64,000 nt of DNA, taken from Patescibacteria group bacterium (GTDB lineage Bacteria > Patescibacteriota > Patescibacteriia > Patescibacteriales > JBAZCA01). The notes under the pieces are model-generated. The model saw only the letters and a program-made list of their open reading frames with translations. It ran no database searches and was not told the DNA's origin. Within the stretch, counting starts at the first letter, position 1, and every line of letters begins with the position of its first letter. The DNA lies in NCBI GenBank assembly GCA_041661505.1, contig JBAZUF010000004.1:4861-68860 (forward strand). Reading direction: 5' to 3'. Of this stretch, positions 19,398 to 36,885 are shown piece after piece. A program made the translations under genes and the position numbers.

Positions 19398-20012
19398 TTA
19401 TTTATCTCCTAAAATAAAATTTTTAAGCAGTATTTTTCCGCCTTCAGTGGCGAAAGATTCCGGGTGGAATTGGATTCCGCAGATTGGATATTTTTTGTGC
19501 TTTAGCCCCATAATTTCGCCGGTATCGGCGGCGCGGGCGGTTATTGCAAGGCATGAGGGAAGGGATTTAGCATCGGCTACAAGAGAATGGTAGCGCATGA
19601 CTTCAAGGTTTTGGGGCAGGCCGCGGAACAACCCTTTAGAGTCATGCATTATCCGGCTTACTTTTCCGTGCATCGGCCGCTTGGCTCTTATGACTTTTCC
19701 CCCGCAGTAATGGGCGATGCCTTGCATGCCCAGGCAAACGCCTAAAACCGGAATGGTTTTTCCCAGCCGGGTTATAACCTCGGCGCACACCCCGAAATAA
19801 GCCGGTTCGGACGGATCGCCGGGGCCGGGGGAAATTACTATTTTATCAAAGCCGCTTTTTTCAATCTGTCCGGCGGTAATTTCGCTGTTCCTTTTTACTA
19901 TAAGCTCAAAGGGCCGGTTTTCGGCTTCTAAAATTTCGCCGATATACTGGTAAAGGTTGTAAGTAAAGGAATCGTAATTGTCGATTATCAGGATTTTCAT
20001 AGAATTATTCAA
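19398..20012 (-). CDS. trpG: anthranilate synthase component II (glutamine amidotransferase)
   Basis: Class I GATase (GVCLGMQ, QFHPES). Overlaps trpE by 8 nt. Confidence 0.9.
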   Translation of the reverse strand: MNNSMKILIIDNYDSFTYNLYQYIGEILEAENRPFELIVKRNSEITAGQIEKSGFDKIVISPGPGDPSEPAYFGVCAEVITRLGKTIPVLGVCLGMQGIAHYCGGKVIRAKRPMHGKVSRIMHDSKGLFRGLPQNLEVMRYHSLVADAKSLPSCLAITARAADTGEIMGLKHKKYPICGIQFHPESFATEGGKILLKNFILGDK

Positions 20013-21417
20013 ATTCTTTTAGAACTTTCTTCATCGCGAAAAGCTTACTTTTAATTTCGGCGTATTCTTTTCCCGGTTTTGAGTCATAAACAATCCCGCC
20101 GCCGGTCTGGGCGTAGCCCTTATTTTTGTAAATGAATAATGACCTGATGGGAATGGCAAAAGTACATTCGCCGGAAAAGCCGAAATGCCCGACCGCGCCG
20201 CCGTAAGGGCCGCGCGCCTCATTTTCCTCGCGCTCGATTATTTTCATCGCTTCGATTTTTGGCGCGCCAGTCAAGGTTCCGGCCGGGAAATTGGCGGCCA
20301 GGGCGGAAAAGGCGTCTTCGCCTTCCCGGATGATGCCGGCCACTTCTGAAGAAATATGCTGGACGTGGCTGAATTTTTTTACATCCATGGCGTTTTTCAC
20401 TTTGACGGAACCGAACCGGGCGACCCGGCCGATGTCGTTTCTGTGCAAGTCGATTAGCATTGAATGTTCGGCGATTTCTTTCGGATCGGATAAAAGTCGG
20501 CGGGTAAGTTTTAAATCTTCGGCCCGGCTGGTCCCGCGAGCGGCCGTCCCGGCCAAGGGAAAAGTTTCCATTTCCCCCTCTCTTAACCTGAATAAAAGCT
20601 CGGGCGATGCGCCGATTATTTTTTCCGGACCGAATTTGAGGTAAAACATGTGGGGCGAAGGATTGACCTTCCGCAGACTTTCATAAATTAAAATATCATC
20701 TCCCCTTATTTCAAATTCGCTTTTAAACCCGGCCACGCACTGGAAGATTTTTCCCTCGGTTATGTCTTTTTTTATCCTTTTTACCATCGCCTCATGCTCT
20801 TTTTTGGTTTTTGTGTCCCGGATGAATTTTACCTTAAGTTTTTTCGGGCCGGAATTTTTTACCGCTGCGCCGCCGCCCTTTTTGCCGAAGGCCATTTTTT
20901 TTATCAAGGGCGCGCGGTTTTGGCCGTAGTGAAAGTAAAAAGATTCGCCCGTCATTTTATCGTAAACCAATCCGTCGGTGTAAACCCCGAATTTAAACTG
21001 GCTAAAATTTTTATGCGGCGCTAGATTAATAGCCGGCTCAAAATAATTCATGCCTTCGTAGGCGATATAGCCGATAAGGCCTCCGGCGTATTGGCGGGAA
21101 ATTACGTTATTGGGAACAATTTTCCTTAAGGCGTAATACGGATTTTCGACCCGGAATTTTTTAGTTTCAATCTTGCCGTTTTTGGCGCGGCAGTTTGTAA
21201 GGCTTAATTCATTTCCGGCGGCGGCCAAAATTGCTTCCGGGCCGAACCCGATTACGTGATAGCGCGAGCGGCCGCCCTCTTCGCCCAAGGATTCGAGAAT
21301 GAAGCAGTCTTCGAAATTTTCTTCAATTTTTTTGAATAGCTCAAAAAAATCAGCGTCCTCGGCGAATTTTATATAGCTCGGTTTTTTATTCTTAAGTTTT
21401 ATTTTCGGCAGCGTCAT
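20005..21417 (-). CDS. trpE: anthranilate synthase component I
   Basis: Chorismate-binding enzyme (FPAGTLTGAPK, GPYGGAVG). First gene after the T-box leader. Confidence 0.9.
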   Translation of the reverse strand: MTLPKIKLKNKKPSYIKFAEDADFFELFKKIEENFEDCFILESLGEEGGRSRYHVIGFGPEAILAAAGNELSLTNCRAKNGKIETKKFRVENPYYALRKIVPNNVISRQYAGGLIGYIAYEGMNYFEPAINLAPHKNFSQFKFGVYTDGLVYDKMTGESFYFHYGQNRAPLIKKMAFGKKGGGAAVKNSGPKKLKVKFIRDTKTKKEHEAMVKRIKKDITEGKIFQCVAGFKSEFEIRGDDILIYESLRKVNPSPHMFYLKFGPEKIIGASPELLFRLREGEMETFPLAGTAARGTSRAEDLKLTRRLLSDPKEIAEHSMLIDLHRNDIGRVARFGSVKVKNAMDVKKFSHVQHISSEVAGIIREGEDAFSALAANFPAGTLTGAPKIEAMKIIEREENEARGPYGGAVGHFGFSGECTFAIPIRSLFIYKNKGYAQTGGGIVYDSKPGKEYAEIKSKLFAMKKVLKEFE

Positions 21418-21502: not shown

Positions 21503-21781
21503 AAAAAACCTCCCATCCTTTTATCTAAATAAAATATTTTAGATAAAAGGACGAGAGGTTATCCCGCGGTGCCACCCTTTTTTCCTCCGCCCGAGGCGGA
21601 GAACGCTTACTGACTCGTAAATTGAAATCAGTTATCCTCTGGTTACGGAGGAAGCCGGGCCCTCACTAGCGCAAGAGCCGCCTTTCCCGTCCTGTATTGC
21701 GCAAGACGGGGTAAACTAGACCCAGTCCCTTGGCAGAACCAAGGGATCCAGTTTTAGGCTTTATAGTTGTTAAATTGCTTA
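21503..21781 (-). promoter_or_regulatory. T-box leader (tRNA-sensing riboswitch) of the trp operon, with a terminator
   Basis: The minus strand reads AAAAAAGGGUGGCACCGCGGGAUAACCUCUCGUCC, with the T-box core at 21563-21577. It is preceded by a Stem-III-like hairpin CUCCGCC-UCG-GGCGGAG. A long terminator hairpin at 21509-21558 ends in U6. Confidence 0.85.
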
Positions 21782-21787
21782 ATATTA

Positions 21788-21816
21788 TTTATAGCACAGA
21801 GCTAAACTGCTGTCAA
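21788..21816 (-). promoter_or_regulatory. promoter TTGACA-17-TATAAA for the trp leader
   Basis: On the minus strand the -35 hexamer is at 21816..21811, the spacer is 17 nt, and the -10 hexamer is at 21793..21788. Confidence 0.6.
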
Positions 21817-21868
21817 ATGCCCGAAAGTTATGGTTATTTTCTGGGGGTTTTTTCAATAAACGCCCGGT

Positions 21869-21898
21869 TTGACAGAAAAAGCAGTAGCATGATAATAT
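21869..21898 (+). promoter_or_regulatory. promoter TTGACA-18-TAATAT
   Basis: Perfect -35 hexamer at 21869-21874. The mini-ORF ATG at 21908 is 9 nt after the -10 hexamer. Confidence 0.45.
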
Positions 21899-21907
21899 CT
21901 ATTATAG

Positions 21908-21964
21908 ATGCAAACCGGTCTCAATAATGAAGCCGGTTTTATTGCGCTCTTTATTAAAAAGTAA
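21908..21964 (+). CDS. near-leaderless mini-ORF MQTGLNNEAGFIALFIKK (speculative)
   Basis: It has the same promoter-to-ATG geometry as the other leader ORFs and contains the hairpin aaaccgg/ccggttt (21912-21939). It shows no obvious amino-acid bias. Confidence 0.25.
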   Translation: MQTGLNNEAGFIALFIKK

Positions 21965-22402
21965 TAATTGGCGGAGCCCGTATTAGGTGCCTGGAGTCTT
22001 AAATTCCAACCGGCAGAGATAAGTCTGCCTAGAATTGAGAAAGTTATGAACCTTTTTGTAATTTCGACACAGCCTGGGATGGCCAGTGAAATACACACCA
22101 CTCTGCAAAAGGATTTTCCCGATGGAGTGGTTGTGATGGGTCAGGATCGGCTGACCCTGGATACTAGTTTAAAACCTGACAGGCAAGTCGAGCTGTCAAT
22201 CAGAAGCGGAATAAGAAGCATGAAAGGCGTGGTGGCAATATGCCAAGTTCCGCGGCGTCCGCCTGTGAGATTCCGCAATCCTTTTCGCGTTCAATGCGGA
22301 AGCAATTGCGGAGAATGCGAGAGAGATCTCTGCTAAATAGCATGCACGTCGGGCGAGGGAAGCAAAGCACGCGCTTTCCCCGCCCGCCCAGAACTTTCCG
22401 CT
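21965..22402. other. GC-richer, densely hairpinned segment: unclassified ncRNA candidate or a 96-aa Cys-tailed ORF (22046..22336 +)
   Basis: Many perfect local stems: ggcaga/tctgcc, ccactc/gagtgg, gggtcag/ctgaccc, tgacag/ctgtca, tccgcaat/attgcgga, and a 14-bp stem at 22349-22384. Strand and class are unresolved. Confidence 0.35.
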
Positions 22403-22436
22403 AAAAAAACCGCCCGACTTTGATGGGGCGATTTTT
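22403..22436 (-). terminator. terminator after aroC (usable on both strands)
   Basis: Stem cgccc/gggcg (22411-22415/22426-22430). The minus strand has a U7 tract (22409..22403) and the plus strand has atttttgtttt. Confidence 0.55.
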
Positions 22437-22490
22437 GTTTTAATGCAAGTTCGGCGCTTTATGCATATTAGGATGGGCCTGGCAGAAGAA

Positions 22491-23564
22491 TTATTTATAG
22501 GCTTTATAGCGCAGGTAATGGTCAAGGATTACCAAGGCGGCCATAGCCTCGACGATGGGAACCGCCCGGGGAACGATGCAGGGGTCGTGCCGGCCGGCGG
22601 CCTTTAAAGTGATGGATTTATTTTGGCGGTTGAGCGTTTCTTGGGCTTTGGCTATTGTTGAAGTCGGCTTAAAGGCCACCCGGAAATAAATATTTTCGCC
22701 GTTTGATATTCCGCCCAAGGTTCCGCCGGAGAAATTGGTGCGGGTTTTGACTTGGCCTTTTTCCGCGTAAAACGAGTCGTTGTGTTCGCTCCCGCGCATT
22801 TCCACGGCGCAAAAGCCTGACCCGATTTCAAAACCTTTGGCGGCATTGATCCCGAGCATAGCCTTGGCCAGATCGGCCGGCAATTTATCAAATACCGGAC
22901 TGCCTAAGCCGACCGGGGCATTCTTAATTACCGCCGATACGCTTCCGCCGATTGAGTCGCCTTCCGCTTTAACGGCTTCGATAAGGGCAATCATTTTTTT
23001 CGCCGCTGTTTCATCCGGGCATCTTACCGGATTGGCTTCGATTTTTTTTAAGCTTACTTTGGAATAATCAACTTCGGATTTTACGCTTCCTACCTGATCG
23101 ACAAAGCCTATAATTTCAACGCAAAATTTTTCCTTTAAATATTTTTTGGCGATGGCTCCGGCCGCCACCTGGGCTAATGTCGTCCTGGCCGACGCCCGGC
23201 CGCCGCCGCGCCATTCGCGGTTTCCGTATTTGGCCGAATAAGTAAAATCCGCGTGCCCCGGGCGGTAAACTTCTTTTAAGTTTTCGTAGTCTTCCGAACG
23301 GGCATCGCTATTCTTAACCAGTAAAAGAATCGGAGCGCCGGTGGTCTTGCCGCCGGTAACGCCCGATAAAATTTGGATTTTATCTTCTTCTTTCCTTTGG
23401 GTGGTAATTTTACTTTGCCCGGGCTTTCTCCGGTCAAGCTCTTTTTGGATGTAAGCTTCAGTTATTTCCAATCCGGCCGGACAGCCGTCAATTATGGCGC
23501 CTACGCCTGCTCCGTGCGATTCGCCGAAAGTAGTAATAGTAAATAATTTTCCAAAAGTATTCAT
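22491..23564 (-). CDS. aroC: chorismate synthase
   Basis: [18 protein letters not shown] and [13 protein letters not shown] motifs. Confidence 0.95.
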
Positions 23565-35655: not shown

Positions 35656-35844
35656 ATGGAAGAGAATGACGGAATTGTTTGTTTTTGCCGCGTATGCGGT
35701 AAAAAAATGGTAGTTGAGTCAAGGGGCGGCAATCTTGACGCCGCCGCCCTAAAAAACATGCTTTCCTGCTCCGATGCTTGTCGCGAGCGGGAACGCGAGC
35801 AATTAATCTCCGCCCCCAAGAGCATTGTTTTTCAGGGGATATAA
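35656..35844 (+). CDS. small Zn-ribbon-like protein, 62 aa
   Basis: AAGGAGG lies 5 nt upstream of the ATG. Contains CFCRVCG...CSDAC. Confidence 0.5.
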   Translation: MEENDGIVCFCRVCGKKMVVESRGGNLDAAALKNMLSCSDACREREREQLISAPKSIVFQGI

Positions 35845-35855
35845 AAGGAGATATT

Positions 35856-36032
35856 ATGTTCCTTCAAAAGTCCTCCGTTCCGCGGGAGAAAAAAAAGGTA
35901 ACCGTTCTAAACTGCGGAATTTGCGGAAAGGAAGTCAAGCTGGTGGTCGCGAGAGACTATCCAGAAGACCTGATCCGCAAAATGGCGTCCCCGGTTTGCA
36001 AGGAATGCAAAATAGAACTGGGGATAGGATAG
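35856..36032 (+). CDS. small Zn-ribbon-like protein, 58 aa
   Basis: AAGGAG upstream. Contains CGICG...CKEC (two CxxC pairs). Confidence 0.5.
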   Translation: MFLQKSSVPREKKKVTVLNCGICGKEVKLVVARDYPEDLIRKMASPVCKECKIELGIG

Positions 36033-36167
36033 GGGAGAAAGACAAAGAAGTTTGTCTTTCTCCCCTCCTCAATTTAATTTTTATCTTTAAAGATAAGGCT
36101 TGGGTTGAGGAGGATTCTAAATACTAAAGTAGTCAGTGATCTTTTTATAAACGAGGGGGAGAAAAAA

Positions 36168-36542
36168 ATGAGGCTTATGTGGCGGGCAGTAATAGGCAGG
36201 TGTTCGACTCCGGATTGCGGGCTGGATTATGAGCTAGTACCCACGAGCTGGAAAGAAAGAGGGAAAGCAAAGAGAGGGGAATTGCCTTGCCCTGACTGTA
36301 AGTGTTACGAAGCAGTCGTTCTGGCCATTGGTAATTGTATTTCCCAAGGCGGTAGGGCAATAACTAAGGCCGGGGAGATTGTATCAACAACTCTATTGGT
36401 GCCGTGCAAGAATTGTTTAAGAGACTTTCTTTACACGGCCTCCAGCGAGGAAGATGCATTAAGAGCTAAACACGGGGCTGAAATTTGTGTCTTATGCCAG
36501 CAATTAGAAAGGGGAAAAAATGGCAAAACCTGCATGGGGTGA
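36168..36542 (+). CDS. Cys-rich hypothetical protein, 124 aa
   Basis: GAGGGGGAG upstream. Contains several CxxC-type pairs (CSTPDC, CPDCKC, CKNC, CVLC). Confidence 0.5.
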   Translation: MRLMWRAVIGRCSTPDCGLDYELVPTSWKERGKAKRGELPCPDCKCYEAVVLAIGNCISQGGRAITKAGEIVSTTLLVPCKNCLRDFLYTASSEEDALRAKHGAEICVLCQQLERGKNGKTCMG

Positions 36543-36885
36543 TCTCTATCTGAAGCCAGGTGAGGAATATCCAATCGGTCCTCAACCCGGTGATCTCCTG
36601 ATAAACCAAGGACCTGTAATTAAAGGTGTTTGTTCGAAATGCCGCCGTTGGTTTGAGGAGTCGGTGGAAAATTTCGAGATCGTGATGAAGACGAGGAGAT
36701 GCTTTACCTGCCGCGGCAGCGACTGGGGGAGTATTACTTCCCGGCTCATTTTGCACCAAGAGGTGTTGTCTGATGGTTATGTATCAGAAACACCACTTGA
36801 AGATCTTTGGGCGCTGGAGAAACCCCCAACCTCCGTACCGGCAGGAGTTAAAGATTTGGCCGATATCGGGTTCTGGCAAGATTAA
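36520..36885 (+). CDS. hypothetical protein with a CxxC...CxxC motif, 121 aa
   Basis: AAAGGGG upstream. Overlaps the previous ORF by 23 nt. Contains CSKC...CFTC. Confidence 0.5.
   Translation: MAKPAWGDLYLKPGEEYPIGPQPGDLLINQGPVIKGVCSKCRRWFEESVENFEIVMKTRRCFTCRGSDWGSITSRLILHQEVLSDGYVSETPLEDLWALEKPPTSVPAGVKDLADIGFWQD

Follow-up and report, generated by a model that had tools for sequence, protein, structure and literature searches.

A candidate young ORFan transcription unit on a species-specific insert between aroC and the trp promoter of a Patescibacteria group bacterium

A compact DNA element between aroC and the trp promoter of a Patescibacteria group bacterium shares features with several described kinds of bacterial element. 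Among large stand-alone structured non-coding RNAs, the OLE, GOLLD, ROOL and HEARO types are known. Like these, the unit studied here is several hundred nucleotides long, has a promoter and a terminator of its own, carries many local hairpins and lies above intergenic DNA in GC content. Unlike them, and with the comparison reaching as far as Rfam 15 covers them, it has no Rfam match; it is also absent elsewhere in the genus, folds equally on both strands and diverges approximately neutrally. Its nearest counterpart among known kinds is the bacterial ORFan. In the relevant sections of the literature, E. coli ORFans are characterized as short, narrowly distributed and fast-changing (PMC3514957), and most ORFans are attributed to import (PMC13012023). 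The 96-codon open reading frame of the unit (ORF96) resembles the E. coli ORFans, as portrayed in those sections, in being short, limited to one species, without homolog, fast-changing and non-native in its codons, and in occupying a discrete insertion that sister genomes lack (PMC13012023, PMC3514957). It differs in composition, its GC content exceeding that of its surroundings where E. coli ORFans are characterized there as AT-richer, and in that the E. coli studies, as far as those sections go, drew on population data for selection on coding capacity, whereas ORF96 is represented by one variant strain (PMC13012023, PMC3514957). We favor, with roughly even confidence, the reading that the unit is a young ORFan transcription unit under weak constraint, carried on a species-specific insert of about 670 nt.

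The window analyzed here is a stretch of 64,000 nucleotides, and the assembly that carries it totals 1.29 Mb over 12 contigs, with a completeness of 96%. Within the window, aroC (chorismate synthase, 22491-23564; Pfam E 1.5e-141) and trpE (anthranilate synthase component I, 20005-21417; Pfam E 2.4e-81) both lie on the minus strand and are separated by a spacer of 1073 nt that contains the unit. The same spacer holds the trp promoter on the minus strand (TTGACA at 21816-21811, 17 nt, TATAAA at 21793-21788) and a trp T-box leader (21510-21790, minus strand), which scores 36.9 bits against a Rfam gathering score of 93 (E 2.7e-6) and has its terminator at 21557-21510. Most of the stem I/II region of this leader is absent from the Rfam match, yet its conservation across the three genus members is good, and in the alignment a UGG within the conserved ACTGGGTC could be the Trp specifier. 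A search of the literature on tryptophan T-boxes in Patescibacteria found no related paper.

Alignment of the three genomes of the genus revealed a lineage-specific insert of approximately 665-675 nt (about 21820-22490, both strands) that occupies the space between the aroC stop (22491) and the trp -35 box, with a left edge uncertain by about 10 nt. In the other two genomes, G001 and G002, the aroC stop lies only 10-14 nt from the trp TTGACA. Both genomes have aroC and trpE adjacent and in the same order, at 79-80% and 75-76% identity to the window, respectively, and both keep the TTGACA-17-TATAAA promoter, after which the T-box leader aligns well with that of the window; on the other side of the insert, the end of aroC aligns as well. 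The genome of the window, G000, is the outlier of the three (aroC identity 79-80% versus 86%; trpE identity 76% versus 79.5%). Read from the alignment, the element is an insertion-or-deletion difference within the genus. Outgroups give it no direction: of 151 genomes of the order only 5 were found to carry aroC, and in the two of these that belong to other genera the gene is followed by different neighbors, so that acquisition by the genome of the window is not distinguished from loss in the lineage of G001 and G002. No match to the insert DNA was found in 40 relatives, and searches with blastn at word size 7 and with tblastx returned neither a second copy nor a distant echo in its own genome. 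For a MITE or IS we looked for nested terminal inverted repeats, direct repeats flanking the insert ends and multiple copies; the insert is single-copy and has neither type of repeat. It likewise contains no tandem repeat, and no phage or mobile-element trace was found for it.

The spacer of G001 holds an unrelated nested-palindrome repeat of about 306 nt between the trp T-box terminator and trpE (locus L004, 2890-3195), with inner arms of 14 nt at 100% and of 20 nt at 85% complementarity. G001 contains 12 matches to this repeat and G002 contains 2, whereas G000 gave none; it looks like a MITE-type family specific to part of the genus. Since the G001 spacer took up this unrelated repeat, the aroC-trpE spacer evidently accepts insertions, and different species of the genus have received different ones. 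That the region tolerates junk also speaks for a reading that we consider possible though doubtful, in which the insert of the window is inert imported DNA. According to this reading it is decaying foreign or rearranged scrap, ORF96 is a chance frame in GC-richer DNA, the promoter is useless or fortuitous, and only the terminator has been kept, for its service to aroC.

The initial annotation had described a self-contained plus-strand unit between aroC and the trp promoter with a strong promoter of its own and a bidirectional terminator, and this description stands. The sigma-70-type promoter (21869-21898, plus strand) can be read as TTGACA-16-GATAAT, which matches the consensus at 11/12 positions, or in the form originally proposed, TTGACA-18-TAATAT, with TTGACA at 21869-21874, a TG ahead of TAATAT and 10/12 matches. 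It and the trp promoter face away from each other, with their -35 boxes 50 nt apart. Promoter sites with at least 11/12 matches number 111 in the genome, and their density of 20 per 200 kb compares with 3-7 in five shuffles, an approximately fourfold enrichment. This near-consensus promoter would start a plus-strand RNA of about 530 nt near 21903-21905, divergent from the trp promoter.

Directly behind the promoter we recovered the annotated 18-codon mini-ORF (21908-21964, translation MQTGLNNEAGFIALFIKK) and, inside it, the annotated hairpin AAACCGG/CCGGTTT. The hairpin forms the 5' terminus of the predicted transcript (21907-21943, plus strand), overlaps the start of the mini-ORF and folds at -13.7 kcal/mol (z -3.58), a value that none of 200 shuffles equaled. 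The label of a leaderless mini-ORF was not supported: the AUG (21908), 3-5 nt from the predicted transcript start, is buried in the paired stem of this hairpin, and no terminator/antiterminator switch lies behind it. Leader-peptide attenuators share with the unit a very short ORF directly behind the promoter, together with a hairpin. Unlike them, the unit has no terminator/antiterminator pair, no biosynthetic gene downstream that could be regulated, and an AUG that is paired; the mini-ORF peptide contains no codon run for one amino acid, and no T-tract terminator was present between 21964 and 22046. We rejected a leader-peptide transcription attenuator on these grounds, and we read the 5' hairpin as a stabilizer and the mini-ORF as incidental.

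The annotated 96-aa ORF was confirmed at 22046-22336 on the plus strand, with an ATG start and with start and stop intact. Its frame is open upstream to a TTG at 21968, which would give 122 codons, and the gene callers of the source collections disagree on the start (122, 96 or 85 aa). The annotation had assigned it a weak RBS, and a Shine-Dalgarno sequence is indeed absent, but its A-rich context with T at -1 is the norm of the genome: the 25 nt ahead of 800 long ORFs, genome-wide, are rich in A and poor in G and carry no Shine-Dalgarno signal, and position -1 is T in 68%. Since starts in this genome do without that signal, a weak RBS is no argument against any ORF here, and the typical start context of ORF96 weighs against a chance frame in inert DNA. 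The same can be said of its length: an ATG ORF of at least 96 aa arose on the plus strand in 2.3% of 3000 dinucleotide shuffles (p = 0.023), and on either strand in 7.9%.

The codon content of ORF96 gave an equivocal coding signal. Under a native codon model, its log-likelihood ratio of -0.052 fell below that of 99.8% of 2457 true in-frame chunks and of 86% of 429 shadow ORFs; by this measure it does not outdo shadow ORFs, in agreement with imported scrap. A model trained on real versus shadow frames scored the whole ORF at 0.002, with 5.6% of real chunks lower and 8.5% of shadow ORFs higher, and it divided the ORF into unlike halves. The first half scored +0.117, and codons 12-60 or thereabouts reached +0.18 to +0.23, against a real-gene mean of 0.177. 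The last 48 codons scored -0.112 and are non-coding-like, and no other frame takes over. The gene-like first 60 codons thus argue against an inert stretch, and the second half argues for it. The plus strand also shows a purine excess of the kind seen on sense strands, with an AT skew of +0.069 and a GC skew of +0.125 (real-gene means +0.084 and +0.064). Two ORFs on the minus strand, at 21853-22101 and 22196-22525, belong to no family and have non-coding-like codon scores of -0.106 and -0.245.

ORF96 begins with a beta-rich stretch of about 65 aa and continues through a linker rich in Arg and Pro to a tail with the pattern C-x3-C-x2-C-x4-C, and its predicted product would be a small beta-rich domain to which the linker and a four-cysteine tail are attached. 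AlphaFold run without an alignment returned a best model with a pLDDT of 60, while the other four models had 31-37; in the best model only, six strands were placed in residues 3-67 at a pLDDT of 62-73. Such low confidence is what a chance frame in inert DNA would also give. With this low-confidence model, Foldseek found no match at E <= 0.001; its top matches were generic beta-sandwiches, with no TRAP-like match among them.

Searches for relatives of the protein were negative throughout. ORF96 had no family in Pfam, NCBIfam (none at E <= 10) or PHROG, and among 5.8 billion clustered proteins it retrieved its own cluster only. The 4 members of that cluster, P0001, come from four source collections and are letter-identical apart from where the start was called, so the cluster reveals no variation. 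A whole-library HMMER search returned, besides ORF96 itself, P0002 (E 5.9e-11, 7 stretches) and P0003 (E 3.8e-8, 9 stretches). Both are giant cadherin-like/Ig-like repeat proteins in which different parts of the query were matched, in pieces of about 25-28 bits each, and because one weak match was counted many times we rejected them as repeat-summed noise. A remnant of such a cadherin-like/Ig-like domain was also rejected: a profile built from 16 repeat units of P0002 scored ORF96 at 8.0 bits (E 0.64 among 3458 genome ORFs), hhalign gave a probability of 18%, and neither Cadherin_4 nor Big_9 was found in Pfam. Other candidates were discarded as well, namely the best ESM Atlas scores (0.81 and 0.78, within the range for shuffled proteins), PDB sequence matches (E >= 0.69) and a match to Arg_repressor_C (E 0.056, 13.7 bits versus a cutoff of 25). 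For Cys-rich RiPP precursors of the SCIFF/ranthipeptide type, a match to a family model and an adjacent radical-SAM maturase are expected. No NCBIfam family was matched at E <= 10 and the neighbors are aroC and trpE, which led us to reject this candidate.

The DNA of the insert was no more productive, having no match in phages, plasmids, viral contigs, metagenome contigs or genome contigs, where records of its own or a very near genome may be excluded. ORF96 is intact and no homolog was found outside its species, the two features by which an ORFan is recognized. The lack of relatives in every collection searched is equally in keeping with imported DNA that has no function. According to the ORFan reading that we favor, ORF96 would be of recent origin and experience little if any purifying selection, and it may have been imported from an unsampled source or have arisen on imported DNA.

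A second strain allowed divergence to be assessed. Two groundwater sequencing runs, which may be its source, contain the stretch completely, and 17% of its words occur in a third run, X3, which belongs to a different study; among the sequencing runs on record that contain the stretch, none is listed as RNA. The X3 contigs represent a close strain and cover 21678-21952 and 21985-22320, leaving 21953-21984 and 22321-22520 uncovered, and since they cover the element it exists in a second strain. Differences from the window numbered 10 in 540 nt of trpE, 3 in 108 nt of the T-box, 9 in 336 nt of aroC and 4 in 275 nt of 21678-21952, which comprises the T-box 5' end, both promoters and the mini-ORF. 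In the ORF body (21985-22320) there were 22 in 336 nt, with no gap. The body thus differs at 6.5% of positions (22/336; 93.5% identity) and the flanks at 2.1% (26/1259; about 98% identity; Fisher p = 9e-5). One X3 record (record 20, 22521-22580, 11 differences in 60 nt) was excluded from these counts as probably derived from another organism, and because X3 contig depth is below 5 some of the differences may be errors. We obtained a rough neutral estimate of 4.6-9.3%, which is the synonymous divergence if the flanking genes have a dN/dS of 0.05-0.2, a range that was assumed and not measured. Since 6.5% falls inside this rough estimate, no constraint is visible on the body. Divergence at about the estimated neutral rate is also what scrap DNA should display, and it counts against an RNA whose body is functional. 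None of the 22 changes is an indel, which weighs against inert DNA and hints weakly that the frame is preserved. The 98.5% identity of the promoter and 5' part in X3 points in the same direction, though that stretch also includes the trp promoter and the T-box 5' end.

The initial annotation had read the stretch as a hairpin-dense structured element that could not be matched by eye to tmRNA, RNase P, SRP or 6S RNA. The lack of a known RNA family was borne out. In Rfam 15 at gathering thresholds the window yielded only 3 tRNAs, located elsewhere, with nothing at threshold inside the element, tmRNA, RNase P, SRP, 6S RNA, riboswitches and large non-coding RNAs included. A permissive Rfam search of 21869-22436 produced STnc240 as its sole entry (22.8 bits against a gathering score of 55, E 1.4), and ARAGORN detected no tRNA or tmRNA gene in the element.

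The individual structures were partly as described, with some coordinates of the earlier description off by 1-3 nt. Both arms of the proposed closing helix ggcgga/tccgcc are present, at corrected positions 21970-21975 and 22258-22263. We counted 5 local perfect stems of at least 6 bp, with loops of 3-12 nt, in place of the at least seven claimed, and the alternative pairings were reproduced at 22271-22312. The reported 14-bp stem does exist at 22350-22363/22373-22386, but its arms are 86% complementary and not perfectly paired. This GC-rich hairpin (22350-22386, plus strand), with its 14-nt arms, folds at -22.8 kcal/mol (z -1.82) and lies 14 nt past the stop of ORF96. No U tract follows it, and it is probably a 3' stabilizer. 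Together, the 5' hairpin and this 3' hairpin would protect the RNA. The GC-richer composition of the body was likewise corroborated, at 0.509 versus 0.376 +/- 0.064 in ORF-free stretches and 0.442 in the genome; a GC content this high is compatible with foreign DNA, with a gene or with an RNA.

Several of these properties would suit a non-coding RNA of about 530 nt restricted to this species, in which the hairpin-rich, GC-richer body acts as RNA, either regulator or scaffold, and the ORF is incidental. We consider this account unlikely. Its composition fits, as does the arrangement of the unit, which has its own promoter and terminator and, as the annotation had stated, no plus-strand gene downstream. 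The fold of the predicted transcript (21903-22440) also appears supportive at first, with a z of -4.56 on the plus strand and none of 100 shuffles as good, but the reverse complement folds equally well (z -4.85), and equal folding on both strands indicates DNA-level palindromes rather than strand-specific RNA structure. For the body alone (21965-22340), the plus-strand z was -3.33, while random 376-nt segments of the genome (n=30) had a mean z of -0.83 (sd 1.84) and 4/30 of them reached -3.33. Similarly, the 5 perfect hairpins exceed the 1.2 +/- 1.1 seen in shuffles (p = 0.014), but among 2387 equally long windows of the genome 6.2% contain at least 5. Measured against the genome background, the excess of structure is modest, and the claim of a large structured RNA element could not be upheld. 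Nor did the element behave as a conserved RNA among relatives, being missing from both sister species and changing approximately 3 times faster in its body than the flanking genes. Lack of conservation, which the annotation had named as evidence against its reading, was found at the genus level (G001 and G002) but not at the strain level, as the close strain has the element. The stretch is not supported as a conserved structured RNA, and we regard it as an ordinary orphan insert. The main value of the analysis is this clean negative, in which a unit that by eye resembled a large structured RNA turned out to be an orphan insert that has no family, diverges near-neutrally and is absent from the sister species.

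The 3' end of the unit is formed by a bidirectional intrinsic terminator at 22405-22436, where a hairpin folds on both strands (-11.5 kcal/mol on the plus strand; -13.8 kcal/mol, z -4.05, on the minus strand) with A/T runs flanking each side; a consensus terminator scan did not report it. The ORF is preceded by an 11/12 promoter and followed by a terminator, the order proper to a gene, and this arrangement tells against inert DNA. For the young ORFan unit we propose the following course, built from the predicted signals. The RNA begun at the near-consensus promoter would end at about 22436 in the terminator and would most likely be the mRNA of the 96-aa ORFan, with translation starting at AUG 22046 in the absence of a Shine-Dalgarno sequence. 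On the plus strand the terminator would stop this orphan transcript before it ran antisense into aroC, and on the minus strand it would stop aro-operon transcripts ahead of the trp promoter and T-box operon. We infer from this position that the terminator is the one part of the unit with an evident host role, which would be to separate aro transcription from the trp T-box operon.

No terminator is present on the aroC side in G001 and G002. Between the aroC stop and the trp -35 box of these two sister species (locus L003, about 2570-2590; locus L004, about 2565-2585), the sequence offers the aro operon no terminator, and transcripts of the operon would continue directly into the trp promoter and T-box leader. 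An insert can therefore supply an operon terminator that relatives lack.

A more ambitious account, which we judge rather improbable, is that the unit is a newborn functional element in a reduced genome, whether a de novo or freshly imported proto-gene that has only recently gained a promoter and a terminator or a regulatory RNA of about 530 nt restricted to this species. Transcribed divergently from the trp T-box promoter, such an element could influence it. Should ORF96 prove to be expressed, as the young ORFan unit that we favor would have it, the locus would represent a datable ORFan gain in a very small genome.

Elsewhere in the window, at 35656-36885, are orphan mini-ORFs which, like ORF96, are small, bear cysteines, have no relatives and lie in a gap beside the control region of an amino-acid operon. 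Codon scores are non-native in both cases (zn145 -0.023 and zn121 -0.078 for the mini-ORFs; -0.052 for ORF96). Unlike them, ORF96 has a single C-x3-C-x2-C-x4-C tail where they have CxxC pairs, and the insert shares no sequence with them. Finally, a 15-nt direct repeat (93%) links the T-box leader start (21752-21766, TTTTAGGCTTTATAG) with the last codons of aroC (22495-22509, TTATAGGCTTTATAG). Both copies sit outside the insert edges, and the repeat could be due to chance in AT-rich sequence or be a trace of the origin of the insert.
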